From positions 1 to 59,409 of IMG/VR virus record IMGVR_UViG_3300005531_000120: DNA of 59,409 bases; one strand, 5' to 3'. The number at the start of each line of letters is the position of its first letter. Within the stretch, counting starts at the first letter, position 1. This document shows, in pieces, positions 72-59,368 of the stretch. Made by a program: the position numbers and the translations under genes. The notes beneath the pieces are model-generated. The model searched no databases and was not told the origin of the DNA. It worked only from the letters and a program-made list of their open reading frames with translations. Origin of the DNA: a virus (taxonomy: Duplodnaviria; Caudoviricetes).

Positions 72-120
72 AGCCTGGCTGGGGCGCCAGGATTCGAACC
101 TGGGAATGGCGGATTCAAAG
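72..120. repeat. Left attachment site (duplicated 3' half of tRNA-Gln)
   Basis: AGCCTGGCTGGGGCGCCAGGATTCGAACCTGGGAATGGCGGATTCAAAG identical to 59290..59338; identity ends in the anticodon loop. Confidence 0.97.
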
Positions 121-168: not shown

Positions 169-1335
169 CTACTCCGGGCCGCCCTGTGCCGGCTTTCGTG
201 CCGGCCGGCTTCCGGACCGGCGCGACCGCTGTGCCGACCGGGCCTGCTTCGAGGCCTCGGCCTCGCGGTTTTCCGCGAGTTTCCGCTCGAGGTCCTCGAC
301 CTCCAGGAAAGCGTAGCTCCGCTGGGTCACCAGCACCGAGGAGTGGCCGAGCCACTGGCTCACCTGCTCCATCGACATGCCGTGGTCCCGCAGCAGCCGC
401 ACGCCGCAGGTGCGCCGGAGATCGTGCCAGCGCACGTCCTTGAGCCCCGCGCGCTCTGCGGCGCCCTTGAGGCCGCGGTCCATCGTCCGGTAGCGCGTCA
501 CGCGCTGGCGGCCTGGCGTCAGCAGCCGCTTGCCGGAGGCCGGATCGACGGCGCGGCGACCCGGAGGCCGCGCGTTCACGAAGACGTAGTCCGTGCCGAG
601 ATGCGCCGGCAGCTTCGCGAGGATCTCGGCCGCGCGCGGCAGCAGCGGCACGTCGCGGGGCTTGCTGTTCTTGGTGCCCTCGCGGAGCGCGATGCGCCCG
701 TGCGCGATCTGCTGGCGCTGCAGCGAGAACTGCTCCTCCTTGCGCAAGCCGGTGTCGATCGCGACGGCGATCGCCTTGGCGACGTGCGGCTGCGCCGCCT
801 TGAGGAGCGCCGCCTCCTCCTCGTGCCGCAGATACCGCCGCCGCGGCGGCGACTCCTTGAGGCCGCGCTTCTTGCGCCGGCGCAGGTAGGGCCCGACGGG
901 GTTGGCGTCGATCCACTCCCAATCGATGCAGCAGCTCATCATCGACGAGAGGCACGCGAAGTCGCGCCGGATCGTCGGCGGCTTGGCGCCCGCGCGCCGG
1001 CGGGTCGTCTCGAACTCCATGAACTCGGCCGAGCCGAGGTCATCGATGAAGCGGCCCTCGAAGGCGTTGGTGAGGTGCACGGCCGAAACGCGATAGCGCT
1101 GGGCCGCCTTGGGCTTCAAGGTCGGCAGGTGCTCGTCGATGAACTTGAGCATCGCCTCGTCGAAGGTCCGGCGGGGCTTCTCGCCCCAGCTGACCCGGTC
1201 TAGCTCCTCGAGCCACTCGCGGAGGCGCTTCTCCGCAACTCGTCGAGACGTTGTCTTAAGGGACTGTCGGAGGTCCTGACCTTGACGCTGGACACGCCCC
1301 CAGAGCATCCGGCCCCGGCGGTAGATGGACGCCAT
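169..1335 (-). CDS. int: Phage integrase (tyrosine recombinase)
   Basis: DTGLRKEE, WHDLRRT, WLGHS...TQRSY catalytic motifs; adjacent to att. Confidence 0.97.
   Translation of the reverse strand: MASIYRRGRMLWGRVQRQGQDLRQSLKTTSRRVAEKRLREWLEELDRVSWGEKPRRTFDEAMLKFIDEHLPTLKPKAAQRYRVSAVHLTNAFEGRFIDDLGSAEFMEFETTRRRAGAKPPTIRRDFACLSSMMSCCIDWEWIDANPVGPYLRRRKKRGLKESPPRRRYLRHEEEAALLKAAQPHVAKAIAVAIDTGLRKEEQFSLQRQQIAHGRIALREGTKNSKPRDVPLLPRAAEILAKLPAHLGTDYVFVNARPPGRRAVDPASGKRLLTPGRQRVTRYRTMDRGLKGAAERAGLKDVRWHDLRRTCGVRLLRDHGMSMEQVSQWLGHSSVLVTQRSYAFLEVEDLERKLAENREAEASKQARSAQRSRRSGSRPARKPAQGGPE
185..205. promoter_or_regulatory. Putative integrase arm-type sites (left)
   Basis: TGTGCCGG / CGTGCCGG direct repeats with 12-bp period; the same pair occurs at 59021..59041. 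Confidence 0.6.
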
Positions 1336-6947: not shown

Positions 6948-7169
6948 GAGTTCCGCTCCTGGGTTGTTTGACCGCTCCCAGTGTAGCGGTGCGGGGGCCG
7001 GCGCGCCGAGCGACAGCGCCGGTCCCCGTCTCGATCTGCTCCGCCCCTCTCATCTGGTTCCGCGACGCGCCGGTTCATTCGCTTGCGCCGGCGTGCCCTT
7101 CGCGGCCGCGGCGCCGGGCCTGCTCGCATCAGCCCGGCGTCGCGGCCGTGATTTTTTCAGGAGTGCACG

Positions 7170-7370
7170 ATGGCCCGATGGACCACCACCGAGATCCGCG
7201 TCCGCGCCCTCGAGCTCGCGCAGGAGGCCGAGGGCGTGGGCGCCCAAGACCACGGCGCTCCCGTCGTCAACGACGTCGACAAAGTGCTCGCCCGCGCGGG
7301 ACGCTACGCCCAGTTCCTCCTGGCGGCAGAGGGCTCGCGAGCTAAGAGCCGCGGTTCGCGGGCTGCCTAA
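7170..7370 (+). CDS. Hypothetical phage protein
   Basis: AGGAG SD; EIRVRALELA...VLARAGRYAQFL. Confidence 0.65.
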   Translation: MARWTTTEIRVRALELAQEAEGVGAQDHGAPVVNDVDKVLARAGRYAQFLLAAEGSRAKSRGSRAA

Positions 7371-7521
7371 CCGTCTTGAGACACTCGGCGTAGGTATCGA
7401 GGATCCATTTACGGTCGGGCTTCTGCCCGGCGCCGGACAGCGTCTTGCCCTCGGCGTGTGCCGTATAGACGAGCAGCTGCAGCGCCACGCCTTCCGCGGT
7501 GTACGGCAGTTCCTGAGCCAT
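7342..7521 (-). CDS. Small hypothetical protein, counter-oriented
   Basis: GGGAGA SD; TAEGVALQLL...DRKWILDTYAECL. Confidence 0.65.
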   Translation of the reverse strand: MAQELPYTAEGVALQLLVYTAHAEGKTLSGAGQKPDRKWILDTYAECLKTVRQPANRGS

Positions 7522-7631
7522 GTGATTTCTCCCGTTGCTGGCAGGTTTACCAGAGCCCACAGCATCGGGGCCGGCGGACGGAGGCGCAAGCTTCCGTCCG
7601 ATCCGGCGATCGCATGCGATCGCATGGCGAT

Positions 7632-7670
7632 GTTACGCGGGCGGCGAGGGTTGGCGTGGCGGCTCGCCGC
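7632..7670 (+). repeat. Dispersed TAC-hairpin repeat, copy a
   Basis: GTTAC + stem GCGGCGAG/CTCGCCGC, loop GGTTGGCGTGGCGG; 30 bp identical to 10318..10347. Confidence 0.85.
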
Positions 7671-7677
7671 CCGCGGA

Positions 7678-7938
7678 TCAGCGAGACCCGTCGAGGGGCG
7701 CGTAAACCGCGTCGCCGACGAGCGTGCCGCCGAAGACGGGAGGCGGCTCGGGCTGGCGGTTCGCGTGCTCCATCGGCGTGTCGTCGGGCGAGGCGATATA
7801 GGCCACGCCGTTCGCGAAGGTGCGGGTCGCGTTGAAGGCCTGGAAGCTCGGGTCCTGCTGCGCGCAGGCCGCCAGTCCGACCGCCGTCGCGATCGCGCCG
7901 GCGGTCAGCGTCTCCTGCAACAAGTCGGCGATCTTCAT
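7678..7938 (-). CDS. Putative lipoprotein, counter-oriented
   Basis: LAAC lipobox after hydrophobic stretch. Confidence 0.6.
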   Translation of the reverse strand: MKIADLLQETLTAGAIATAVGLAACAQQDPSFQAFNATRTFANGVAYIASPDDTPMEHANRQPEPPPVFGGTLVGDAVYAPLDGSR

Positions 7939-7994
7939 TTCTGTTGCCCCTTGAATGTCCGCATTGTCGCGAATGTCGGGTGCAGGGGGCGTTA

Positions 7995-8333
7995 ATGCAG
8001 GGGACCCAAGCGTGCCAGGCACTCCCGATGGCGGGAGTCCGACTCCTCTACCAGCGGCACGCCGCCAAGGCCGTCATGCGGCTCTTCCACGTGAGCCTGC
8101 GCACCGCGCGCCGGTGGCTCGCGAAGGGCTTCGTGCCCGCGCGCGTGGTCGCCTGGGCGCTGCCCATCATCGACGCCGAGATCGAGCGGCGGGCGGCGCG
8201 GCTCGAGGCGCTCCACCGTGAAATCGTCGCGGCCGAGGCTGCTCTGGCTTCGGGTCCTAACGGCGCTCGAGACGAGTGCGATCTCGAGGCTGCGCCGGCT
8301 CAAGCAATTCCTGTCCCGACACCGGAGGACTGA
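7995..8333 (+). CDS. HTH protein at CII-like position
   Basis: AKAVMRLFHVSLRTARRWL HTH followed by coiled coil. Confidence 0.6.
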   Translation: MQGTQACQALPMAGVRLLYQRHAAKAVMRLFHVSLRTARRWLAKGFVPARVVAWALPIIDAEIERRAARLEALHREIVAAEAALASGPNGARDECDLEAAPAQAIPVPTPED

Positions 8334-17651: not shown

Positions 17652-18500
17652 GTGATCGACGACGACGGCCTGGTCGCGCTCTGGCTGCATGGTCGGCCGG
17701 CGTCGACGACGCGCGTCTATCGGCGCGAGCTCGAGAGCCTGCGGCACCAGTTGGTACAATCTGGTACCAACCTGACCACCGCCACGCTCGAGCAGCTGCA
17801 GCGGCACCTCGCGGCGATCGCCGCCAAGGCGCCGCGCACGCGGGCGAAGGCGATCGCGGCGATCCGCTCGTTCTACCGGTTCCATCAGAAAGTCGGCACG
17901 ATCGCGACGGATCCGTCGCTGGCGCTCGTCGCACCCAAGGTGCCGCGGGATCTCGCCGAGCGGATCCTCGACCAGGCCGATATCGCAAAATTGATATGCG
18001 CGCCGGCGACGCCGGCGGAGCGCGCGATCCTGCGGCTGCTCTATGTGGCAGGCCTGCGCGCCTCCGAGCTCGCCGGGCTCTACTGGCGCCAGGTGGCGCC
18101 ACGGGCCAACCGCGAGGGCCAGGTCACCGTCACCGGAAAAGGCGACAAGACGCGCTCGGTGCTGATCCCCGCGGATCTCTACCGCGCGCTCGTTGACTTA
18201 AAAGTCAACGCTCAGCCCTCTGATCCCGTCTTTCCGTCCGCCAGGGATCCTGCAAAGCCGATCGGCACGCGATCGCTGCTCCGCGTGATCAAGCGCGCGG
18301 CCGCGGCCGCCGGACTCGCCGACAAGGTCTCGACGCATTGGCTGAGGCATAGCCACGCGAGCCACGCGCTCGACAACGGTGCGCCCCTTCATCTGGTCAG
18401 AGATACGCTAGGCCACGCCAGCATCTCGACGACCGATCGATATCTCCACGCGCGCCCCAACGACGGCAGCGCGCGCTACCTCAAAGGCAAAAGCCGATGA
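17652..18500 (+). CDS. Second tyrosine recombinase (XerC/D-like, resolvase type)
   Basis: LYVAGLRASE, GKGDKTR, STHWLRHSHASH, LGHASISTTDRY; no arm-binding domain. Confidence 0.93.
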   Translation: MIDDDGLVALWLHGRPASTTRVYRRELESLRHQLVQSGTNLTTATLEQLQRHLAAIAAKAPRTRAKAIAAIRSFYRFHQKVGTIATDPSLALVAPKVPRDLAERILDQADIAKLICAPATPAERAILRLLYVAGLRASELAGLYWRQVAPRANREGQVTVTGKGDKTRSVLIPADLYRALVDLKVNAQPSDPVFPSARDPAKPIGTRSLLRVIKRAAAAAGLADKVSTHWLRHSHASHALDNGAPLHLVRDTLGHASISTTDRYLHARPNDGSARYLKGKSR

Positions 18501-21688: not shown

Positions 21689-23014
21689 ATGTCCATCTGG
21701 TCGCGCATCGCCGGGCTCCTCGCGCGGCGCGAGAAGATGACGCCGGAGGAATGGTTCGAGAGCTTCTACGGCGGCTCCGCCAAAAGCGCGACCGGCGAGG
21801 TCATCAACCAGATGGCGGCCCTCAGGGTCGCGGCGGTCTGGGCCTGCGTCACGATCCTCGCCGAGGACGTCGCGAAGCTTCCCTGGCACGTCTACCGGCG
21901 CCGGGCCGACGGCGGCAAGGCGATCGCGCAGGACCATCCGCTCGAGGCGCTGCTGCAGCGGCCCAACGATTATCAGAGCAGCTTCGAGTGGAAAGAGCAG
22001 ATGATGGCGGCGCTGGTGCTGCGCCGCAACGCCTACGCGCCGATCCGCCGCGACTGGCGAGGCGCGCCGACGGCGCTCATTCCCGTCAATCCCGACTGGG
22101 CGTCGATCTATCAGGCCCCTGACGGCCAGATTTTCTACAGGGTCGCGGTCCAGAACCAGCACCTGGCCGCGATGCTGCGCTCCTTCCCGGAGATGATCCC
22201 CGCCGAGGACATGCTGCACATCCGCGGCATGAGCCTGAACAGCCTCTGGGGCCAGTCGGCGATCGGGTCCGGCCGCGACGCGATCGGTCTGGCGCTGGCG
22301 CAGCAGGCGCTGGCCGCCGTGTTCGCCAGCAACGGAACGCAGCTCTCGGGCGTGCTCGAGGTGCCCCAGAAGCTCAGCCCCGACGCGTATGCGCGGCTCA
22401 AGGCGAGCTGGAAGAAGGCTCGCTCCGGCATCAACAATGCCGGCGAGACGGCGATCCTGGAGCAAGGCGCCAAGTTCAGCCGCTTGGGCATGACCTCCGT
22501 CGATGCCGAGTTCATCGCGGCCCGCAATTTCCAGGTCGCCGAAGCCGCGCGGATGTTCCGCATTCCGCTGCACAAGCTCGGCATCTCCGAGCGCTCGACC
22601 AACACCACGATGGCCCAGGCCGAGCAGGAGTATGCCAACAACACCGTGCTTTCCTGGGTCACCCGGATCGAGCAGAAAATGAACCAGGCGTTCGGGCTCT
22701 ACGACGACGGCGCGTTCGTCGAGTTCGACATGTCGCACTTCCTGCGCGCCGACATCGTGAGCCGTTACAGCGCCTATCGCACCGGCATCGTCGGCATGTT
22801 CCTGACGCCCAACGAGGCGCGGCGTGCGGAGGGCCTGCCCGAGGTCGACGAGGGCGACACGCTCTATCAGCCGACGAATGTGGCGCCGATCGGCTTCGAG
22901 CCCGCGGGCAAGGAGACCGGTCCCGGCAGCGACGTCACCGGCACCGCCGCGCCGGGCGGCGCCGGCGATCCAGCGGCCGCTCCGGACGAGGACCCCACGG
23001 CGCCCCAAGGCTGA
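21689..23014 (+). CDS. HK97-family portal protein
   Basis: AVWACVTILAEDVAKLP, RPNDYQSSFEW, LHIRG, ARMFRIP, TPNEARRAEGLP. Confidence 0.97.
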   Translation: MSIWSRIAGLLARREKMTPEEWFESFYGGSAKSATGEVINQMAALRVAAVWACVTILAEDVAKLPWHVYRRRADGGKAIAQDHPLEALLQRPNDYQSSFEWKEQMMAALVLRRNAYAPIRRDWRGAPTALIPVNPDWASIYQAPDGQIFYRVAVQNQHLAAMLRSFPEMIPAEDMLHIRGMSLNSLWGQSAIGSGRDAIGLALAQQALAAVFASNGTQLSGVLEVPQKLSPDAYARLKASWKKARSGINNAGETAILEQGAKFSRLGMTSVDAEFIAARNFQVAEAARMFRIPLHKLGISERSTNTTMAQAEQEYANNTVLSWVTRIEQKMNQAFGLYDDGAFVEFDMSHFLRADIVSRYSAYRTGIVGMFLTPNEARRAEGLPEVDEGDTLYQPTNVAPIGFEPAGKETGPGSDVTGTAAPGGAGDPAAAPDEDPTAPQG

Positions 23015-23035
23015 TTTTCGCGCGAGGAGATTTTC

Positions 23036-24097
23036 ATGCGCCATCGCGCCTTTCCCGGGCCGCGCCTAGAGACGCGCGCTCTCTACGAGCGGGCGGGCAA
23101 ATTCCTGCTGGCCACCATCTTCCGCGACGATGACGCGCGCGCGTGGTGCAAGGCCAATGGCATCGCGATCACGCGCGCCGCGGACGAGACGATGGACTCG
23201 ACCGGCGGCTTCCTGGTCCCCCACGAGCTCGCCGCGGCGATCCTGGACCTCCGCGACATGTTCGGCGCCTTCCGGCGCCGGGCTCGGATCATGCCGATGA
23301 AGCACGACTCCATGGGCGTTCCGCGGCATGCCGGCGGCACGAGCGCGTTTTTTACCGCGCAGAACGCGGCTGTCAGCGGCACCAACGCCAATCCCGACAG
23401 CATGTCGCTCACGGCCAAGAAGATCGGCGCGCTCGTGCAGATCTCGAGCGAGCTCGAGGAGGACGCGATCGACAGCATGGTCGATTACGTCGCCAACGAA
23501 ATCGCCTTCGCGTTCGCGGCCCAGGAGGACGACTGCGCCTTCAACGGCGATGGCACCTCGAAATACGGCGGGATGCTCGGCGTCTCGGCGATCGTTCTCG
23601 ACGGTAACCACAACAAGGCGAAGGTCACCGCGGCCTCCGGCCACAACACCTTCGCCGGCCTCGACACCACGGATCTCGGCAACGTGATGGCCGCGGTCCA
23701 GGCTTCCGCGATCCCGAACGCCGCCTGGTTCTGCTCTCAGACCGCCTTCGCGCTCACGTTCTGCCGTCTCGCCGGATCGGGCGGCGGCGGCTATCTCGAC
23801 ACGCGCCTGGTCGATGGGATTCCGACCCCCTGTTATCTCGGTTTTCCGGTCGTCCTGACCCAGAAGCTGCCGCTGGTCACGAGCTCGCTCTCGGGAAAGG
23901 TGATGCTCGCGTTCGGCGACATGTACGGGGCGGGCGTGCTCGGCGAGCGGCGCGGCATCACGATCGCGCGCTCTTCCCACCGGTATTTCGATCAGGACCA
24001 GATCGGGGTGCTCGGCACGGAGCGCTTCGACGCCGTGCTGCATCAGATGGGGGACAACGCGAATTTCGGGCAACTCGCCGCGCTGGTGGGGAACTGA
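23036..24097 (+). CDS. HK97-fold major capsid paralog 1 (short N-terminus)
   Basis: GGFLVPHEL, LTAKKIGALVQISSELEED, FNGDGT, YLGFPVV, FGD, ERFD; GAGGAG SD; intact ORF. Confidence 0.9.
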   Translation: MRHRAFPGPRLETRALYERAGKFLLATIFRDDDARAWCKANGIAITRAADETMDSTGGFLVPHELAAAILDLRDMFGAFRRRARIMPMKHDSMGVPRHAGGTSAFFTAQNAAVSGTNANPDSMSLTAKKIGALVQISSELEEDAIDSMVDYVANEIAFAFAAQEDDCAFNGDGTSKYGGMLGVSAIVLDGNHNKAKVTAASGHNTFAGLDTTDLGNVMAAVQASAIPNAAWFCSQTAFALTFCRLAGSGGGGYLDTRLVDGIPTPCYLGFPVVLTQKLPLVTSSLSGKVMLAFGDMYGAGVLGERRGITIARSSHRYFDQDQIGVLGTERFDAVLHQMGDNANFGQLAALVGN

Positions 24098-24098
24098 C

Positions 24099-25502
24099 AT
24101 GCTCAAGCGATTGACCATCGACGAGTTCCGCGCGGCCGCTCGCGAGAAGCGCGCGCTCGAGGGCACGGTCTCGCGCCTGGCGCTCTCCGACGGACAGGCG
24201 GTGGACGGGCAGGCCCGCACCATCCGCTTCGTCTTCAGCGACGGCACGGTCGACCGCGCCGGCGACCGCATCGATCCCGAGGGCTGGGACACCGAGGATT
24301 TCCTCAAGAACCCGGTCGCCCTCTGGGCGCACGACAGCTACTCGCCCCCGATCGGCCGCGCCTCGAACATCGGGCCCGTGGCCGGCAAGCTCATGGGCGA
24401 TATCGAGTTCATGCCCGCTGACATCAGCGCGTTCGCGGACAGCGTCTTCCGCATGGTGCAGGGCGGCTACGTGAAGGCGGTCTCCGTCGGCTTCCGGCCG
24501 ATCGAATGGACCTTCACCAACGACAAAGACCGGCCCTACGGCATCGACTTCACGAAGCAGGAGCTGCTCGAGATCTCGGTCTGCCCCGTGCCCTGCAACC
24601 CCAATGCGCTCCTCGAGGCGCGCGCCAAGGGTATCAACACCGCGCCGCTTCTCGAGTGGGCCGAGCGCCTGCTCGACACCGGCGAGAGCGTGCTGGTGCC
24701 GCGCGCCCTGCTCGAGGAGACCTTCAAGGCCGCAAAGACGCCGAAGACCACCCGGCAGAAATATCTGGCTCCTCGCGCGAAGACCGCCGACTGGAAGGTC
24801 GGCGCGGCGCGCGATCTGCCGCTCGACCAGTCCGACTCCTGGGACGGCGCCGCGGCCGCGGCCTCGATCTTCGAGCACGCCGGCGGCGACGATTTCAATC
24901 CGGAGGTCGCGAGGAAGGGCTTCCTGGTCTACGACGCGAGCGCGCCCAAGCTGCGCGGCTCCTACAAGGAGCCTTTCGCACACGTCGTCGACGGCACGCT
25001 GAAGGCCGTCAAGGGCGGGATCCGCGCGGCGGCCTCGCGCCTGCCGCAGGCCGACATCTCCGACGGCGCCCGCGCCGAGGCGAAGGGCGTCATCGAGCAT
25101 TACGAGAAGGCCTTCGGCATCGGCGAGGGCGACAAATCGGTCTCCGGGGAGGACGTCCCGACCGGTACGTGCGGCCGCTCGAAGGACGAAGAGTGCCTCA
25201 TGAAGGATCCGCAGAACTGCGCGGTCCATTACGTCCCGCCGGCGCCTCCAAAGTCGAAGGCGGGACGCCGCATCTCCGCCGCGACGAAAGCGCTTCTCGA
25301 AGCCGCAGCCTCTCATCATGCCGAGGGCATGGCCTGCCATGCCAAGGCGCTCGATTGCATCAAGACGGTGCTCGAGAGCAACGATCCCGCCGGCGACGGC
25401 GACGACGACGCCAACCAGCCGACCGATGACGAGGATACGAAGCGCCATCGCCGGCAAGAGGCGGCCCGGAAGCTCCGCGAGGAGCTCGGTATCGAGAACT
25501 AG
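24099..25502 (+). CDS. HK97-family prohead protease with long C-terminal extension
   Basis: DRAGDRI, NPVALWAHD...PIGR, AVSVGF, ELLEISVCPVPCNPNAL; about 290 further residues. Confidence 0.93.
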   Translation: MLKRLTIDEFRAAAREKRALEGTVSRLALSDGQAVDGQARTIRFVFSDGTVDRAGDRIDPEGWDTEDFLKNPVALWAHDSYSPPIGRASNIGPVAGKLMGDIEFMPADISAFADSVFRMVQGGYVKAVSVGFRPIEWTFTNDKDRPYGIDFTKQELLEISVCPVPCNPNALLEARAKGINTAPLLEWAERLLDTGESVLVPRALLEETFKAAKTPKTTRQKYLAPRAKTADWKVGAARDLPLDQSDSWDGAAAAASIFEHAGGDDFNPEVARKGFLVYDASAPKLRGSYKEPFAHVVDGTLKAVKGGIRAAASRLPQADISDGARAEAKGVIEHYEKAFGIGEGDKSVSGEDVPTGTCGRSKDEECLMKDPQNCAVHYVPPAPPKSKAGRRISAATKALLEAAASHHAEGMACHAKALDCIKTVLESNDPAGDGDDDANQPTDDEDTKRHRRQEAARKLREELGIEN

Positions 25503-25665
25503 AGCCGTCCGACCGGCTCTTCGCCCAGACGGCCCTTGGGCAAGGCAATCCCGCGGCGCCGAGAGTGCGCCGCATCCCACCAACGCCACGCAGATACCTT
25601 CCCGCGAGCAGGAGCCGACGGTTCGGCCCGCGTGAGGGAGTGGCATTTGACGGAGCCCACCAGCA

Positions 25666-26979
25666 ATGGCGAAGAAGCATGAGCTCCGCCAGGCCCTCAC
25701 TAAGGCCGTGGCGGAGTTGGAAACCATGGCCGGCAAGTCCGAGGCCGAAGGTTTCAAGCAGGACGTCTACGACGCCCTGAACGAGAAGATCCTCGACCTC
25801 AAGAAGCAGCTCGAGCGCGTCGAGCAGGCGGAAAAGGTCGCGGCCGCGCTCGCGAGCCCGGTGCCGGACGCGGACCGCTTGACGCCGCTGGCGCCGCCCT
25901 CCGCGCACAAGCTCTACGGCACGCTCAAGCATTTCCGCGATCGCGAGGTGAACGGCCGCACGATCCGCGCGGTCGATCAGGCCTATGCCGCCGGAATGTG
26001 GTTCAAGGCCACGATCTTCGATCACGCCGGCGCGAAAGACTGGTGCAAGTCGCACGGCATCTCCATCGCGAAGGCGCAGGGCGAGGGCATCGACAGCGCC
26101 GGCGGCTTCCTGGTCCCCGAGGAGCTGCTCGCCAACATCATCGTGCTCCGCGAGCAGTTCGGCGTCTTCCGGCGCGAATGCCAGGTGGTGCCGATGGGCA
26201 GCGACACGCTCAACTGGCCCCGCCGCACCGGCGGCCTGACCGCGTTCTTCACCGGCGAGAACAGCGCGGTGACGGAATCCCAGGCCTCGTGGGACAACGT
26301 CAACCTGACCGCCAAGAAGCTCGCGGTCCTCACGCGCATGTCGAACGAGATCGCCGAGGACGCGGTGATCTCGGTCGCCGACTGGCTCGTGGGCGAGATC
26401 GCCTATGCCTTCGCGCTCAAGGAGGACGACACCGGCTGGAACGGCGACGGGACCTCGAGCTACGGCGGCATCCGCGGCGTGCTGACCGTCTTCGCCGACG
26501 GCAATCACACCGCGGGCCAGTACCAGGTCTCGAGCGCGACGCTCACGTCGCTGGTCCTCAAGGACCTGACCGGCACCATGGGCGTGCTGCCGCAATACGC
26601 GATCGGGTCGGCCAAGTGGTACATGTCGCAGCAGATGTTCTACTCGGTGGTCGCGACGATCACGGCAGGGGCGGGCGGCAACCGCCTCGACGTGTTGACC
26701 GACCCGGTCAACCCGCGGCTCCTCGGCTTCCCGGTGGTCTTCTCGCAGAAGCTGCCGGTCGCCACGCCCGGCTCCGGCAAGGCGATGTTCCTGTTCGGCG
26801 ACCTCGCCAAGGCCGCCGCGATGGGCGAGCGCCGCGGCGTCACGATCAAGCGGTCCGATCATCGCTACTTCGAGAACGATCAGATCGGCCTGCTCGGCAC
26901 CGAGCGCTTCGACATCAACGCGCACGACCTCGGCGACACGTCGAACGCCGGCCCGCTCGTCGCCGCGAAGTCGCCGTAA
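25666..26979 (+). CDS. HK97-fold major capsid protein paralog 2 (with N-terminal coiled coil)
   Basis: Coiled-coil delta-like domain, GGFLVPEEL, LTAKKLAVLTRMSNEIAED, LLGFPVV, FGD, ERFD. Confidence 0.95.
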   Translation: MAKKHELRQALTKAVAELETMAGKSEAEGFKQDVYDALNEKILDLKKQLERVEQAEKVAAALASPVPDADRLTPLAPPSAHKLYGTLKHFRDREVNGRTIRAVDQAYAAGMWFKATIFDHAGAKDWCKSHGISIAKAQGEGIDSAGGFLVPEELLANIIVLREQFGVFRRECQVVPMGSDTLNWPRRTGGLTAFFTGENSAVTESQASWDNVNLTAKKLAVLTRMSNEIAEDAVISVADWLVGEIAYAFALKEDDTGWNGDGTSSYGGIRGVLTVFADGNHTAGQYQVSSATLTSLVLKDLTGTMGVLPQYAIGSAKWYMSQQMFYSVVATITAGAGGNRLDVLTDPVNPRLLGFPVVFSQKLPVATPGSGKAMFLFGDLAKAAAMGERRGVTIKRSDHRYFENDQIGLLGTERFDINAHDLGDTSNAGPLVAAKSP

Positions 26980-26984
26980 TGGTC

Positions 26985-27087
26985 CCGGCGCGACGAGCCG
27001 CCACGCCACACCAACCCTCGTCGCGCCGGTAACGCCAGGTCTCCCGCGCTACGCGCGCCGCCGGGTTGGCCGGCGGCGGAGGCGCGC
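26985..27087. repeat. Back-to-back pair of TAC-hairpin repeats after the capsid gene
   Basis: Minus unit stem CCGGCGCGACGAG/CTCGTCGCGCCGG + GTAAC; plus unit GCTAC-GCGCGCCGCC-GGGTTGGC. Confidence 0.85.
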
Positions 27088-27130
27088 GGGAAAAGACCCC
27101 CAACCGCTCTTCCTGAAAAGGACCTCTCCC

Positions 27131-27580: not shown

Positions 27581-27676
27581 TCCCGGCCCGACAGCCGGGA
27601 GCGAGGTCAGCGCTGATAGGCGGGCGGAGTGTCGGCTCCGCCCGCTGCTTCTCCCCGACAGGAGAGTTCCGACATG
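27581..27676 (+). ncRNA. Structured 5' leader with complementary hairpin loops (candidate translational switch)
   Basis: Hairpin 1 loop CCGACA (27588..27593), hairpin 2 loop TGTCGG (27630..27635), further CCGACA at 27655..27660 and 27669..27674. Confidence 0.65.
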
Positions 27677-28876
27677 GACAACGACACACGCGAGCATCGT
27701 GAGCTCGCGGAAGCCTGCGCCCGACCGATCAAGCTCGACCTCGGCGCCGGCCCGGTCTCGCCCGCAGGCTTCACGCCGATGGGCGCGGATCATGGCTCCG
27801 CGATCTTTCCGCTCGACTATCCCGACGACTCCGTCGACGAGATCCGCGCGAGCCACGTGCTCGAGCATTTCCCGCACCGCCAGGTGATCGACGTCCTGCG
27901 CGAGTGGGTACGCGTGCTGAGGCCCGGCGGGCGCATGCGCATCGCGGTGCCGGACCTGCTGGTGATCTCGCAGAAATACATCGCCGGCGAGCCGATCAAC
28001 GTCCAGGGCTACCTGATGGGCGGCCAGATCGACGCGAACGATTTCCACAAATGCGCCTTCGACGAGGAGGCGCTCGGCGAGGTGATGGCCGCGGCGGGCC
28101 TGCTGCTGATCCGCCGCTGGACCTCCGAGCTCGAGGACGCGGCCGCGCTGCCGATCTCGCTCAACCTCGAGGGCCGGAAGTCGATCGGGCCCAAGCCGAA
28201 GATCCACGCGGTCATGTCCGCGCCGCGGCTTGGCTTCATGGATAATTTCGTGTCGGTGATCGAGGGCCTGGTCCCTCTCGGCATCCCCTTCAACCGGGTC
28301 ACCGGATCCAACTGGGGCCAATGCCTCACGCGCGGCATGGAGTCCGCGCTCGAGGATCCAAACCTCGACCTTGTGCTGACCCTCGACTACGACACCGTCT
28401 TCAAGTCGGTCGACCTGGTCAATCTGATCCAGACCATCATGGTCTACCCCGAGGTCGACGCCTTGGCGCCGGTGCAGTCGAGCCGCGGCAACTCACGGCC
28501 GCTCCTCGGCATGACGCTCGAGGGCGAGGCCACCACCCGCGTCCCTTATTCGACTTTCGCCGGCGACGTAACCGAGATCGCCACGGCGCACTTCGGCCTG
28601 ACGCTGCTGCGCGCGCGCAAGCTGCGCGAGCTGCCGCGCCCATGGCTACACCACGTTCCGGATCCGGACGGCGGCTGGAACGACGGGCGCGTCGACGACG
28701 ACATCGCCTTCTGGCACAAGTGGAAGCAGGCCGGGAACCGGCTCTTCCTGGCGAACCGCATACCGGTCGGCCATGCCGAGCTCGTGGTGCTGTGGCCCGG
28801 CAAGGACCTCTCGGCGATCTACCAGCCGATGCGCGACTATCACCGGGTCGGCAAGCCGCCCGAGGCCTGGTCGTGA
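27674..28876 (+). CDS. SAM-dependent methyltransferase fused to GT-A-like glycosyltransferase domain
   Basis: KLDLGAG, SVDEIRASHVLEHF, RVLRPGG...AVPD; then LTLDYDTVF (DxD), HFGLTLLR, DDDIAFW...GH. Confidence 0.85.
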   Translation: MDNDTREHRELAEACARPIKLDLGAGPVSPAGFTPMGADHGSAIFPLDYPDDSVDEIRASHVLEHFPHRQVIDVLREWVRVLRPGGRMRIAVPDLLVISQKYIAGEPINVQGYLMGGQIDANDFHKCAFDEEALGEVMAAAGLLLIRRWTSELEDAAALPISLNLEGRKSIGPKPKIHAVMSAPRLGFMDNFVSVIEGLVPLGIPFNRVTGSNWGQCLTRGMESALEDPNLDLVLTLDYDTVFKSVDLVNLIQTIMVYPEVDALAPVQSSRGNSRPLLGMTLEGEATTRVPYSTFAGDVTEIATAHFGLTLLRARKLRELPRPWLHHVPDPDGGWNDGRVDDDIAFWHKWKQAGNRLFLANRIPVGHAELVVLWPGKDLSAIYQPMRDYHRVGKPPEAWS

Positions 28877-29478
28877 GCTTCCGCTGGCTCAACGGGCGCG
28901 CGGCGAACGTCTATTCGCAGTTCGGCGAGGATGGCGTCGTTGCCGCGGTCCTCGAGGTGATCCGTCCGGCGAACCGCTGGTGCTTCGAGTGCGGCGCGGC
29001 CGACGGCCTGTTCTTCAGCAACACCCGGCGCCTGGTGCGCGAGGGCTGGGACGCGGTGCTGGTCGAGCAGGACGCGGCGGCGTTCCAACGGCTCTGCGAC
29101 AATACGCGGGACGATCGCGAGCACGTGCACCTCGTGTGCGAGAGGCTCGACACGATCGATCCGGTGCTCCGGCACGCCGGTGCGCCCGAGGACATCGACC
29201 TGGTCGCGATCGACGTCGACGGCCAGGACTATCACCTCTTCAACTCGATGCTGCGCTACCGGCCGCGCATCGTGATCGTCGAGTACGATCCGAACGCGCC
29301 GGCCGATTTCATCCCCGACGTCGGCGGCGAAGGGCAAGCCGGCCTCGAGGCGATGCGTCGTCTCGCCGCCGGCCGCTTTTACACCGAGGTCTACCGCAGC
29401 TGGTGCAACCTGGTGCTGGTCCGGCAGCCGCTCGACCGGCTCCTCAAGCTGAGCCCAGAGGGCAAGCTGCACGTCTGA
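28873..29478 (+). CDS. FkbM-like methyltransferase
   Basis: YSQFGEDG, FECGAADG..FSNTR, DLVAIDVDGQDY, PRIVIVEY; GTGA overlap. Confidence 0.88.
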   Translation: MSFRWLNGRAANVYSQFGEDGVVAAVLEVIRPANRWCFECGAADGLFFSNTRRLVREGWDAVLVEQDAAAFQRLCDNTRDDREHVHLVCERLDTIDPVLRHAGAPEDIDLVAIDVDGQDYHLFNSMLRYRPRIVIVEYDPNAPADFIPDVGGEGQAGLEAMRRLAAGRFYTEVYRSWCNLVLVRQPLDRLLKLSPEGKLHV

Positions 29479-36956: not shown

Positions 36957-37014
36957 CGCGTGGCGAGCCGCCACGCCAACCCGCGCCGCCGGGTTGGCCG
37001 GCGGCGGAGGCGCG
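36957..37014. repeat. Collapsed pair of TAC-hairpin repeats
   Basis: GCGAGCCGCCACGCCAACCC GCGCCGCC GGGTTGGCCGGCGGCGGAGGCGCG; an internally deleted version of 26985..27087. Confidence 0.8.
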
Positions 37015-54902: not shown

Positions 54903-55115
54903 TCACAGCGCGAGCTCCAGTTGCGCCTGGAACCAGATTCGCAACGGCCGCCGCTGCGGAAGCGGACGCCGGCACGCCGAGCACATCTCTCGGTGACCCC
55001 GATCGGCGGGATCCGGCAGGGGCGCGCTGCCGAGCTTCACGCCAACGAGCGACATTTCGGCGCCCGGCCGGGTCCGCCGGAGGAAGGCCGGGATCTCCCA
55101 GGGGTCGGCACTCAT
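54903..55115 (-). CDS. Hypothetical phage protein
   Basis: WEIPAFLRR motif; ATGA overlap with ATPase stop. Confidence 0.5.
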   Translation of the reverse strand: MSADPWEIPAFLRRTRPGAEMSLVGVKLGSAPLPDPADRGHREMCSACRRPLPQRRPLRIWFQAQLELAL

Positions 55116-56974
55116 GCGCGGCCTCGCATGAGCTCGGCGTCGAAGAGCTGCTCGGCCGCGCGGATCGTGCCGTCGCGCTCGGTGACGACGAGCTCGCGGG
55201 CGCCGAGGCGCTGAAGGTAGGTGTCACGGCTCGAGCGCTTGTAGCCGGTCGCCTCGGTGAGCGCCTCGCGGCTCACCGGCTCCGGATAGGCCGGCAGCAG
55301 CCGCTCGAGGATGACGCGCTCGCCCTGGGGCAGGCGCTCGAGCCAGTACCGCTGCAGCTCCTCCCCAGTGGGCAATGGCGCGAAATCGGCGCCCAGGGCC
55401 GCGATGCCGGCATCGGTCGCGAGGATCCGCTCGCCCGTCTCGACGTAGCCCGCGGCGCCGAGCCGCTGCACGTAGGTGTCCCGGCTCGAGCGCTTGTAGC
55501 CCGTGAGGACGGTCAGCTGCTCGCGCGTGACGCCCTCGGGATGCTGCGCGATCGCGACCAGGCACGCGCGCTCGCCGCGCGCCAGCGGCTCGCCGGCGCC
55601 GTTGGAAGATGGAGCGGGGTCCCGGCGTCGCACCGGGCTCATGCTGGTCGGGCCAGCCCGTCGAACCGACACCCCGCCGGGCGCCGGAGTCGTTCCGACT
55701 CCGGATTTCGTCAGCGCGTCGTTGAAGAGCTTGAGCGAGGCGAAGGCCTCGGTATTCCCGCCGAGCTTCTCGAGCTTCGGGTCCTTGAGCTCGTCAATGA
55801 AGGCGCGCAGCCCGGTCACGCTCTCCGCGAGGCGGCCGAGGTTCGCCATCAGCGGCGCGATGTGCTTCGCCGCACGGCGTAGACCATCGGTGACGCCTTC
55901 GGCGTGACCCTCTTCGCGGGCCCGCTTCAAATCGTCCTTCACCGCCTCGAGCGCGGTCTTCAGAGATGACCTGAGGTTGGCAACCTGCTCGTGTGCCTTC
56001 GCATCCGGCGTCGTGGCCGCGGCCTTCAGCTGCCGCTGCAGCTCCGCGATCGTCGCCTTGAGCCGGCGCGGGTCATTGTCGGCGGTCTCCTTCTCGACCG
56101 TCGCGAGCTTGCCGCGCAGCGCCTCGACATTGAGCGGCTTCAGGTCGGCGGCGTGCTTGCGCTCGCCGCGCTTCGGCGTCGCCGAGCTGTCGAAGGTTGT
56201 CTTCGCCGGGAAGTCCGCGTCCTTGATGATCCCGCGGCCGGGGATCCACACCAGGCCGTGGCCGCGCGGAAAGGCCGCGAGCTCGCCGTAGAGCTCCTTC
56301 CACCGCGCCTTGTCGGCCTGACCCTCGACCCAGTCGCCGATCGCGTCGCGGTCCTGGGTCGAGGTGAGCTTGAACGCGACGAGCCCGTCGATCTGGGAGA
56401 GCACGTTCTTCGAGAGCACCGCCGGCCGCTGGGTGATGAGCCAGGGGATGAAGCCGAGGCGCCGGCCGCGGCGGACGATCGTCTCCATCTGGCCCAGCAG
56501 CTTCGCGGCCTCGCCCTCCTTGTCGAGGAGCCGCTGCGGCGCCCAGAGATCCGCCTCGTCGAAGATCAGGTGCACGGGCTCGCGCGAGGCCTTGCGGTAG
56601 ATCGCGGTCAGCAGGCCCAGCATGAAGCGGCGCTCGGCCGCGTTGGTGCCGAGGCTCGAGAGCGAGACGATGCAGCTCTCCGCCATGCCGGCGACGGTCT
56701 CGCCGATGAGCGCGCCGGCGTGCTCGTTCAGCGGCAGGTCGCCGTGCTCGCCGCCGAAGATCACCACCTTGAACGGCGATTCCGTCTTGCCGTCCGCCAG
56801 CAGCCGCAGGCCAAACCACACATCCAAGGGGTCCAGAATGATGCACCGCGCCCCCCGACGGAGAAGCTGCTCAACGCAGCCGGAAGCGTTGTAGGTCTTG
56901 CCGGAGCCCGCCGTGCCAACGAACCCCAGGCGATCGTCGAGGGCGGCAGCGGGTATGGGGTGCTGCGCGCTCAT
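55112..56974 (-). CDS. HerA/FtsK-like P-loop ATPase with coiled coil and tandem C-terminal winged helices
   Basis: GTAGSGKT, ILDPLD, LIFDEAD, RRGR..G, ITQRP; two TGYKRSSRDTY(V/L)QRL repeats. Confidence 0.9.
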   Translation of the reverse strand: MSAQHPIPAAALDDRLGFVGTAGSGKTYNASGCVEQLLRRGARCIILDPLDVWFGLRLLADGKTESPFKVVIFGGEHGDLPLNEHAGALIGETVAGMAESCIVSLSSLGTNAAERRFMLGLLTAIYRKASREPVHLIFDEADLWAPQRLLDKEGEAAKLLGQMETIVRRGRRLGFIPWLITQRPAVLSKNVLSQIDGLVAFKLTSTQDRDAIGDWVEGQADKARWKELYGELAAFPRGHGLVWIPGRGIIKDADFPAKTTFDSSATPKRGERKHAADLKPLNVEALRGKLATVEKETADNDPRRLKATIAELQRQLKAAATTPDAKAHEQVANLRSSLKTALEAVKDDLKRAREEGHAEGVTDGLRRAAKHIAPLMANLGRLAESVTGLRAFIDELKDPKLEKLGGNTEAFASLKLFNDALTKSGVGTTPAPGGVSVRRAGPTSMSPVRRRDPAPSSNGAGEPLARGERACLVAIAQHPEGVTREQLTVLTGYKRSSRDTYVQRLGAAGYVETGERILATDAGIAALGADFAPLPTGEELQRYWLERLPQGERVILERLLPAYPEPVSREALTEATGYKRSSRDTYLQRLGARELVVTERDGTIRAAEQLFDAELMRGRA

Positions 56975-57528
56975 AAAGCTTCCGCGCGGACGGCGCCGTG
57001 CTTCAGCCGCCAGACAGTCGATTGGCTTACGCCGAATTCGGCCGCGACGGCTCGCTGGCTGATCCCGGGCGTGTTCGCCCGGCGCCGAAGCGCCGCTACC
57101 TGGTCGTCGGTCAGGTCGGCATTCCAGTTGTTCTCGCCGCGCGGCCCGACTTTGCGCGCCCGACCCTTGGCCTCCATATCTTCGACGTTCTCGGCTTGCG
57201 TGCCTTCGAACAGATGGCGCGGCCGGACGCAATTGGGCACGTCGCACTCATGCAGCACGTGGATGCCGTCGGGGATCGGACCGTTCGCGCAGGCATAGGC
57301 GAGCCGGTGAACGTAGACCTGTTGTTCCTTGTACTCGATCCGGCCATGTAGTCCGCTCGGTCGATAGCCCTCGAAGAGCCAGCAATCGCCAGCAGGGCGC
57401 ACGAGCGCCAGCGTCGCCATGATGCGTTCGATCGAAACAACGGCGTTGCGGTCGACGATCACCGGCGCGCTGCGACCAACCAGCCGCATCTCGGCGAGCA
57501 TCCGATGAATGAAACTCACGGCGACCAA
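56971..57528 (-). CDS. HNH endonuclease with C-terminal HTH
   Basis: CWLF...VHRLAY...VLHECDVPNCVRPRHLFEGTQAENVED. Confidence 0.9.
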   Translation of the reverse strand: MVAVSFIHRMLAEMRLVGRSAPVIVDRNAVVSIERIMATLALVRPAGDCWLFEGYRPSGLHGRIEYKEQQVYVHRLAYACANGPIPDGIHVLHECDVPNCVRPRHLFEGTQAENVEDMEAKGRARKVGPRGENNWNADLTDDQVAALRRRANTPGISQRAVAAEFGVSQSTVWRLKHGAVRAEAL

Positions 57529-59289: not shown

Positions 59290-59338
59290 AGCCTGGCTGG
59301 GGCGCCAGGATTCGAACCTGGGAATGGCGGATTCAAAG
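59290..59338. repeat. Right attachment site
   Basis: Identical to 72..120. Confidence 0.97.
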
Positions 59339-59368
59339 TCCGCTGCCTTACCGCTTGGCGACGCCCCA
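59294..59368 (-). tRNA. tRNA-Gln(TTG), intact, with encoded CCA
   Basis: TGGGGCG acceptor stem, GCGGA-CTTTGAA-TCCGC anticodon arm, GGTTCGAATCC T-arm. Confidence 0.98.

Follow-up and report, generated by a model that had tools for sequence, protein, structure and literature searches.

We analysed a pair of capsid genes in IMG/VR record IMGVR_UViG_3300005531_000120, one virus sequence of 59,409 bases (Duplodnaviria; Caudoviricetes) that is called the window throughout. On the + strand its late region encodes, in order, an HNH protein, the small and large terminase subunits (TerS and TerL), the portal protein, a short HK97-family capsid protein (cap1), an S78 prohead protease, a full-length HK97-family capsid protein (cap2), a 147-amino acid (aa) protein (g147) and methyltransferase-like proteins, and continues with a head-tail adaptor, a major tail-like protein, the tape measure and tail tip proteins. 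cap1 and cap2 both lie between the portal and the head-tail adaptor, within the same head module, on either side of the protease. A preliminary description of this DNA had pointed to two intact paralogous capsid genes in this arrangement, and the open reading frames (ORFs) are as it described. A perfect 49-nt direct repeat is found at 72-120 and 59290-59338, the right copy within a tRNA-Gln gene, and the two copies are probably attL and attR. With an integrase and full head and tail modules, the record looks like a complete prophage of ~59.2 kb, presumably that of a temperate siphophage, which argues that cap1 is not debris in a dead element.

Profile searches identify cap1 and cap2 as HK97-family major capsid proteins. 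PF05065 matched cap1 with an E value of 1.4e-29 (103.8 bits) and cap2 with 1.3e-46 (159.7 bits), and TIGR01554 matched them with 1.2e-42 (146.4 bits) and 3.1e-62 (210.9 bits) respectively, all above the curated cut-offs of 24.2 bits (PF05065) and 27.5 bits (TIGR01554). PF05065 was the sole family found for either protein in a Pfam scan at E<=0.01, with no match to T4 gp23/gp24 or to encapsulins. Aligned to each other by BLASTP, the two proteins share 157/330 identities (48%, E 3e-106) with 5 gap positions, cap1 residues 20-349 aligning to cap2 109-433, and all of the shared motifs quoted in the preliminary description are present in this alignment. Moreover, the adjacent portal (PF04860) and S78 protease (PF04586/TIGR01543) genes are as expected of the HK97 family. 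The best solved match of cap1 is the capsid protein of the Rhodobacter capsulatus gene transfer agent (RcGTA; 6TBA, 7.5e-09); cap2 also matches 6TBA (1.8e-05), its best match being 9GYI (7.2e-06), whilst residues 101-251 of the HK97 prohead protein gp5 (3QPR) align to cap2 134-284. The matches to 6TBA and 3QPR point to an HK97 fold for both proteins. AlphaFold2 models built from 31-row alignments reached a mean predicted local distance difference test score (pLDDT) of 59.5 for cap1 and 64.0 for cap2, too low for comparing the folds of the paralogues.

Over the 385 positions of the TIGR01554 model, cap2 covers 2-374 and cap1 only 100-373. The initiator methionine of cap1 aligns at about cap2 G85, and cap2 residues 1-84, which are absent from cap1, comprise a pair of long helices, placed at 2-22 and 32-62 by a low-confidence model, and a Pro-rich linker. 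The missing part is therefore the coiled-coil part of the delta (scaffolding) domain, which cap2 possesses at its N-terminus and cap1 does not. The loss of about 85 N-terminal residues including the coiled coil, as previously noted, thus stands, with the correction that cap1 is not wholly delta-less: it keeps ~50 residues preceding the mature HK97-type N-terminus. Within this stretch M1, R4, F6, Y17, R19, W37 and C38 are invariant among 31 cap1 sequences, and homologous sequence is found at cap2 85-136 and at the corresponding place in single-capsid relatives. The mature N-terminus of HK97 (S104) maps to about cap2 137, equivalent to cap1 ~48, and both proteins may be cut by the protease at this position, near a conserved K-A-(A/Q)-G-E site that precedes GGFLVP.

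The gene pair is conserved in a group of soil prophages. A protein search returned 491 relatives, and the 119 nearest clusters are 62-71% identical to cap1 and all 347-363 aa long; cap2 orthologues are 69-81% identical. Searches for loci with cap1, cap2 and a cap1 alignment gave 53 loci, 40 of which span the portal and protease genes and reduce to 28 distinct sequences. An intact cap1 lies between portal and protease in 24 of these 28, and the gene is intact in 27/27 non-redundant copies. Four loci depart from this order. L041 has nothing between portal and protease and instead carries a 354-aa short paralogue, with the N-terminus RGRAFxG, after g147; the contig of L042 ends just beyond the 147-aa gene; and L052 and L053 have one capsid gene in the region covered, ~51-52% identical to cap2, with an endonuclease-like ORF in place of cap1 in the portal-protease interval of L052 (3185-4510). 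A 60-row tree separates cap1 (27 rows) and cap2 (29 rows) into two clades, each supported at 100; the short copy of L041 branches as the sister of cap1 (96), and L052 and L053 fall in the poorly resolved base. The separate clades indicate an ancient pair that has been inherited together, without signs of gene conversion on a wholesale scale. The cap2 orthologues of L045 and L054 carry a segment AASGHNTF or AATGHNTF (alignment columns ~340-360), typical of cap1 and single-capsid relatives, where cap2 usually has SS--ATLTSL; this is either an ancestral retention or a short gene-conversion tract between the paralogues.

Median dN/dS, calculated by the NG86 method for 231 pairs drawn from the 22 phages with both genes, was 0.25 for cap1 and 0.20 for cap2, and dN was higher in cap1 in 231/231 pairs (median ratio 1.6, range 1.02-2.77). 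Given large synonymous distances and very GC-rich genomes, the absolute dN/dS values are rough, but the direction is clear. Both genes are under purifying selection, cap1 being somewhat less constrained. Neutral decay of cap1 among relatives, for which the preliminary description had suggested a survey of gene order and dN/dS, is thus not what we find: cap1 is a maintained head-module gene that encodes a complete HK97 core without a coiled-coil scaffold of its own.

The two copies are not equivalent. The 348 aligned columns include 74 that are conserved with the same residue in both proteins, 14 fixed differences, 44 conserved in cap2 only and 13 in cap1 only. Fifteen of the 44 cap2-only columns fall within cap2 178-213, a segment that we take to be the E-loop region by its offset to HK97, and cap1 orthologues carry insertions in the equivalent region. 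At the 14 fixed differences at least two of three single-capsid relatives match cap2 at 8 and cap1 at 3, and cap2 looks like the ancestral, general-purpose subunit and cap1 the derived one. Codon use differs in the same direction across the phages, GC content at third codon positions (GC3) being higher in cap2 in 17/22 and the effective number of codons (ENC) lower in cap2 in 16/22. In the window cap2 is the most codon-biased head gene (GC3 0.95, ENC 29) and cap1 among the least biased, and cap2 is probably the more abundant subunit. The smaller number of constrained columns in cap1 fits a subunit with few positions in the shell, and the larger number in cap2 one with many quasi-equivalent positions. 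Lower translation of cap1 through a weaker ribosome-binding site is not supported by a comparison of Shine-Dalgarno (SD) pairing in the 22 phages. The strong SD motif reported for cap1 is present (GAGGAG, 7 nt before the ATG), with a calculated anti-SD duplex energy of -8.9 kcal/mol in the window against -5.8 for cap2. Among RNA runs, none was found to contain positions 22900-27100 of the window.

The reading that we favour, tentatively, is that cap1 is a scaffold-less shell subunit that co-assembles with cap2, most likely as pentons. In this scheme cap2 would be an ordinary HK97-type major capsid protein that uses its delta domain as an internal scaffold and builds the bulk of the shell (hexons). 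Having no scaffold of its own, cap1 would enter procapsids organised by cap2 and the protease, would be trimmed by the same S78 protease and would fill one special class of positions, most likely the eleven pentons. Such a role would explain why the scaffold part was lost, why cap1 parallels gp24 and the Jabs protein MCPp described below, and why fewer columns are constrained in cap1, which would face one structural environment instead of six or more. Three roles had been put forward in the preliminary description, namely a subunit specific to the vertices, a shell that is mosaic or differently modified, and a second size of particle. Their common premise, a maintained gene, holds, and the vertex option fits best, because a short paralogue without scaffold is also what T4 gp24 and Jabs MCPp represent and because cap2 is the more constrained, codon-biased and ancestral-like copy.

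Tailed phages almost always make hexons and pentons from one capsid protein, as HK97 and RcGTA do with a single capsid gene. Both belong to the same family as the proteins described here, and cap2 conforms to them in its portal-protease-capsid order and its N-terminal scaffold domain; we know of no delta-truncated second copy in either. In T4, gp24 loses a much shorter propeptide than gp23. As in the T4 pair, the window has two paralogous shell proteins in one head module, with the special copy derived. Published work has gp24 as the penton protein of T4, closely related to gp23 and open to bypass (PMC3012670). Unlike gp23 and gp24, cap1 and cap2 match PF05065 and TIGR01554 only and fall outside the gp23/gp24 family; T4 relies on a separate scaffolding core, in contrast to the delta-domain scaffold and S78 protease of the window phage, a temperate siphophage; and here the paralogues flank the protease.

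A second parallel comes from Mycobacterium abscessus phage Jabs, for which a preprint describes MCPh (594 aa) in hexons and MCPp (257 aa) in pentons, with a reduced axial domain and a bent spine helix in MCPp and a C-terminal turret in MCPh; its authors there call this dual-capsid strategy unprecedented among icosahedral phages (bioRxiv 10.64898/2026.07.24.740622). The window phage resembles Jabs in being a siphophage with two capsid genes, one of them short, and the short Jabs copy is the penton protein in that account. However, cap1 and cap2 differ mainly by the N-terminal scaffold part, and the Jabs capsid genes are given there as adjacent, whereas cap1 and cap2 flank the protease.

The dual arrangement was not encountered in the wider family. 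The short-form protein P0138 led to 45 loci; a capsid ORF could be recognised in 42 of these, exactly one in 42/42, and loci reached with P0186 and P0126 likewise have exactly one capsid gene in 26/26; the two sets overlap by at least two contigs. Searches of IMG/VR with P0138, P0186, P0212 and P0126 yielded, apart from L041, only more distant long-form single-capsid loci. These wider-family loci have either the portal-protease-capsid order or protease-capsid fusions, and a single fusion protein of 570-730 aa is found in many of them (L074, L079, L081, L087-L093, L098-L100). Amongst cultured phages (tblastn, 50,697 phage records), 211/211 matching records were below 60% identity, and the best identity among the 30 matches listed was below 30%. 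The family is also rare in the species-representative genomes sampled, with matches in 4/301 of the family sample and 2/401 of the order sample. Lastly, a search of the literature that excluded supplements gave no account of a protease gene with an HK97-family capsid gene on each side.

In an exhaustive search (7,339 matches), the best 150 included ~17 further clusters 337-365 aa in length, and a RAF motif occurs within 3-20 residues of the start in many of these. A 163-row tree unites 28/29 short rows with cap2, L052, L053 and P0143 in a clade of 38 rows (support 97), and only 1/125 rows outside this clade is short. A 50-row IQ-TREE analysis kept the clade (SH-aLRT 95), with its four sub-lineages in no resolved order; its members are cap2, the single-capsid L052, L053 and P0143, and 29 short-class rows (337-399 aa), seven of which are cap1. 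Here cap1 (7 rows, 99) has the G200 protein and P0209 as its neighbours (80) in a short group of 16 rows (90). A tree holding cap1 and cap2 together was not rejected (approximately unbiased (AU) test, p 0.30), and therefore both in-place duplication and acquisition from elsewhere are possible.

Three short proteins could be traced to genomes, two of them with informative flanks. In G200 (L133 6459-10972) a primase-helicase gene and a 229-aa ORF are followed by a 353-aa capsid gene, and in G059 (L134 3339-11830) an integrase gene and a 234-aa ORF by a 360-aa capsid gene; G249 (L131) is a 3.3-kb contig with a 203-aa ORF and a capsid gene. Neither in G200 (19 kb) nor in the 12 kb examined of G059 were there matches to portal, terminase or tail proteins or to another capsid gene. 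These three look like phage satellites with a scaffold-less capsid gene. The short proteins of G200 and G059 have the setting expected of a satellite capsid, being encoded in small islands next to an integrase or primase and away from any match to portal, terminase or tail proteins. The ORFs upstream of the capsid gene are homologous in G200 and G249 (34% identity, E 8e-27). We considered these upstream ORFs as scaffolds akin to the C-terminal part of the window protease or to the cap2 delta domain and rejected them as such, there being no BLASTP-level similarity to either. A further island, in L015 (a gammaproteobacterial metagenome-assembled genome), carries integrase, primase-helicase, TerS and a long-form capsid gene, with no matches to portal, TerL or tail proteins.

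Several of these observations weigh against a minor penton protein. The cap1 and cap2 cores are equal in size, and cap1 has no shrunken axial domain of the kind described for MCPp, the cores being co-linear through the 330 aligned residues, a comparison of size only. The difference in codon bias is modest and absent in 5-6 of the 22 phages. SD pairing of cap1 is stronger than, or as strong as, that of cap2 in 16/22, which does not suggest the ~7-fold lower output of a penton subunit. Moreover, single-capsid relatives with the same module exist (L052 and L053, and the 42/42 and 26/26 wider-family loci), and a second subunit is therefore not structurally required. Outside its own clade, the nearest relatives of cap1 are short capsid proteins, two of them in satellite-like islands, and the short form may be able to build a whole shell alone. 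Taken together, the strong ribosome-binding site and the grouping with satellite-island proteins weaken a simple minor-vertex reading, and the grouping keeps the second-particle or alternative-shell option alive.

Cap1 might thus build an alternative shell, alone or mixed with cap2, giving a second head size or a mosaic lattice of hetero-capsomers. The equal cores and the strong ribosome-binding site suit such a role, and short relatives of cap1 are the only capsid gene found in G200 and G059. We nevertheless regard it as unlikely, since cap1 is without a scaffold domain and we recognised no separate scaffold gene next to it; the window has no homologue of the ~200-230-aa gene found ahead of the capsid gene in the satellites. 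In addition, cap1 evolves 1.6 times faster than cap2 with fewer constrained columns, unlike what would be expected of two equal lattice partners.

The islands also suggest conflict between phages and their satellites, in which cap1 would have been exchanged between helpers and satellites, being kept to compete with the short capsid protein of a satellite for the cap2 and protease machinery, or satellites would have taken their capsid gene from it. Phage satellites with capsid genes of their own are known (the capsid-forming phage-inducible chromosomal islands, PICIs), and head size is redirected by SaPI CpmA/B or P4 Sid. As with satellite capsid genes, short relatives of cap1 are found in small islands with an integrase or primase-helicase and no portal, terminase or tail matches, and the tree places cap1 in one group with them. 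We consider this explanation rather improbable. Most short proteins come without genomic context, and the tree uniting cap1 with cap2 leaves plain in-place duplication possible. Unlike satellite capsid genes, cap1 belongs to an apparently complete prophage of 59.2 kb that encodes TerS, TerL, portal, protease, tape measure and tail proteins of its own. Its position within the late head operon, a single nucleotide from the protease gene, is that of a structural gene. The islands examined differ from capsid-forming PICIs in showing one recognisable head gene only. PHROGs and Pfam searches, the sole searches bearing on this, found no similarity to known size-redirection proteins, and PADLOC gave no match to a defence family. 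Matches in 4/301 and 2/401 genomes are also too few to assess co-occurrence of phages and islands.

Alternatively, cap1 could be a transient assembly helper absent from the mature shell, for example by nucleating assembly at the portal or by recruiting the protease to the procapsid as an adaptor. Its location between the portal and protease genes, 1 nt from the start of the latter, would suit such a function, as would the retained delta-proximal stretch, which is also conserved in full-length relatives and could be a region of protease docking or cleavage. A helper of this kind seems to us decidedly unlikely, because the whole HK97 core is conserved, including the 74 columns shared by both paralogues, the tight spacing to the protease is not conserved, with inserts the size of homing endonucleases in some relatives (e.g. 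L007), and the short paralogue of L041 is located elsewhere. That cap1 is a redundant duplicate in the process of being lost, as single-capsid relatives and its faster evolution might suggest, is close to refuted by its intactness in all 27 copies, a length held at 347-363 aa across the 119 nearest clusters, a dN/dS of ~0.25, invariant N-terminal residues and the deep separation of two old clades.

The remaining features of the window are listed with the capsid genes in Table 1. The cap1 start lies 21 nt beyond the portal end in the same frame, with one TGA and 7 codons between the two. We read this as coincidence since the frames differ in L014, and a readthrough fusion was rejected on this ground and because spacers vary. 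As reported previously, cap1 ends 1 bp before the protease, its TGA occupying 24095-24097 and the protease ATG starting at 24099; a frameshift fusion of the two was likewise rejected, given varying spacing and inserts between the genes in relatives. In L007 an HNH endonuclease ORF (7041-8125) lies between cap1 and protease, and enlarged portal-protease gaps are also seen in L003, L009, L013 and L035. The protease has its S78 domain at residues ~35-206, followed by a C-terminal part of ~260-290 residues that has no Pfam match at E<=1 (residues 181-467) and may serve as a scaffold-like extension. Many single-capsid relatives have shorter proteases (ORFs of ~240-410 aa), and the window protease also matches an NCBIfam model of protease-capsid fusions (4.8e-13). 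A regulatory element in the spacer before cap2 was rejected, as neither a promoter-like site, a + strand terminator-like site nor an Rfam match was found there.

Downstream, g147 follows the capsid gene in most related and wider-family loci and may encode a decoration or head-completion protein. The two methyltransferase-like genes lie inside the head module, the first following the capsid gene in most wider-family loci, and their products may modify virion sugars. An exact 30-nt GC-rich repeat able to form a hairpin occurs 76 nt after the cap2 stop and again in the tail region, and a second motif of ~36 nt is present in five, mostly intergenic, copies; both may act as transcript-stabilising or regulatory hairpins.

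Table 1. Coordinates of the capsid genes and other features in the window
Feature	Position	Strand	Evidence or remark
49-nt direct repeat, left copy	72-120		probable attachment site
Integrase	169-1335	-	
~36-nt motif, five copies	7627, 10304, 21639, 33349, 36670		mostly intergenic
Second integrase-like gene	17652-18500	+	just upstream of the HNH and terminase genes
Portal protein, 441 aa	21689..23014	+	PF04860, E 4e-97
GAGGAG Shine-Dalgarno motif of cap1	23022..23027	+	read from sequence; 7 nt before cap1 ATG
cap1, short HK97-family capsid paralogue, 353 aa	23036..24097	+	PF05065, TIGR01554
cap1 N-terminal ~48 residues, retained C-terminal delta part	23036..23179	+	motif MRxRAFPGxGPEVEARYQRAGQWLLATIY...WCK..G
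Prohead serine protease, 467 aa	24099..25502	+	PF04586, 4.2e-07, residues 51-179; TIGR01543, 9.7e-11; phrog_80, 3e-28
Protease C-terminal part, residues 181-467	24639-25502	+	
Spacer before cap2, 163 nt	25503..25665	+	GGAG 10 nt before ATG, read from sequence
cap2, full-length HK97-family major capsid protein, 437 aa	25666..26979	+	PF05065, TIGR01554
30-nt hairpin-forming repeat	27055-27084, 36983-37012		exact copies
g147, 147 aa	27131..27574	+	phrog_5707 (unknown function), 3.6e-08
S-adenosylmethionine (SAM)-methyltransferase-like protein	27629-28876	+	C-terminal half weakly glycosyltransferase-2-like (E 0.041)
FkbM-family methyltransferase	28873-29478	+	
711-aa ORF near the right end	55112-57247	-	weak TerL-like match (6e-17)
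49-nt direct repeat, right copy	59290-59338		probable attachment site
tRNA-Gln gene	59294-59368	-	contains the right 49-nt repeat copy

A more far-reaching possibility is that the short capsid proteins of cap1, of the L041 type and of the satellite-like islands form one radiation of scaffold-less subunits, which would assemble only on the cap2-type delta scaffold and protease of a helper and would be traded between helpers and their parasites. We offer this as speculation and think it quite improbable. If true, the vertex or auxiliary shell gene of the helper and the capsid gene of the satellites would be the same evolving module, and cap1 would be central to an arms race at the level of the capsid, in which satellites redirect head assembly with an alternative subunit and the phage holds its own version. 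The link to satellites, if it holds, would tie capsid gene duplication to helper-satellite conflict.

In summary, cap1 and cap2 form an old pair of capsid genes of which one, cap1, may be a penton subunit built into shells organised by the other. The only two dedicated second shell proteins that we located in the literature are those of T4-like phages (PMC3012670) and phage Jabs (bioRxiv 10.64898/2026.07.24.740622). The dual capsid system described here would be a third, independent lineage, and one within the classic HK97 family. In that family the scaffold is part of the capsid protein, and it is exactly the scaffold part that the second copy has lost. A culturable host may exist, given that one source names the cap1 family member P0015 from Bradyrhizobium elkanii. 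The lineage thus represents a natural experiment in how delta domains direct assembly and how capsid subunits specialise for fivefold positions.

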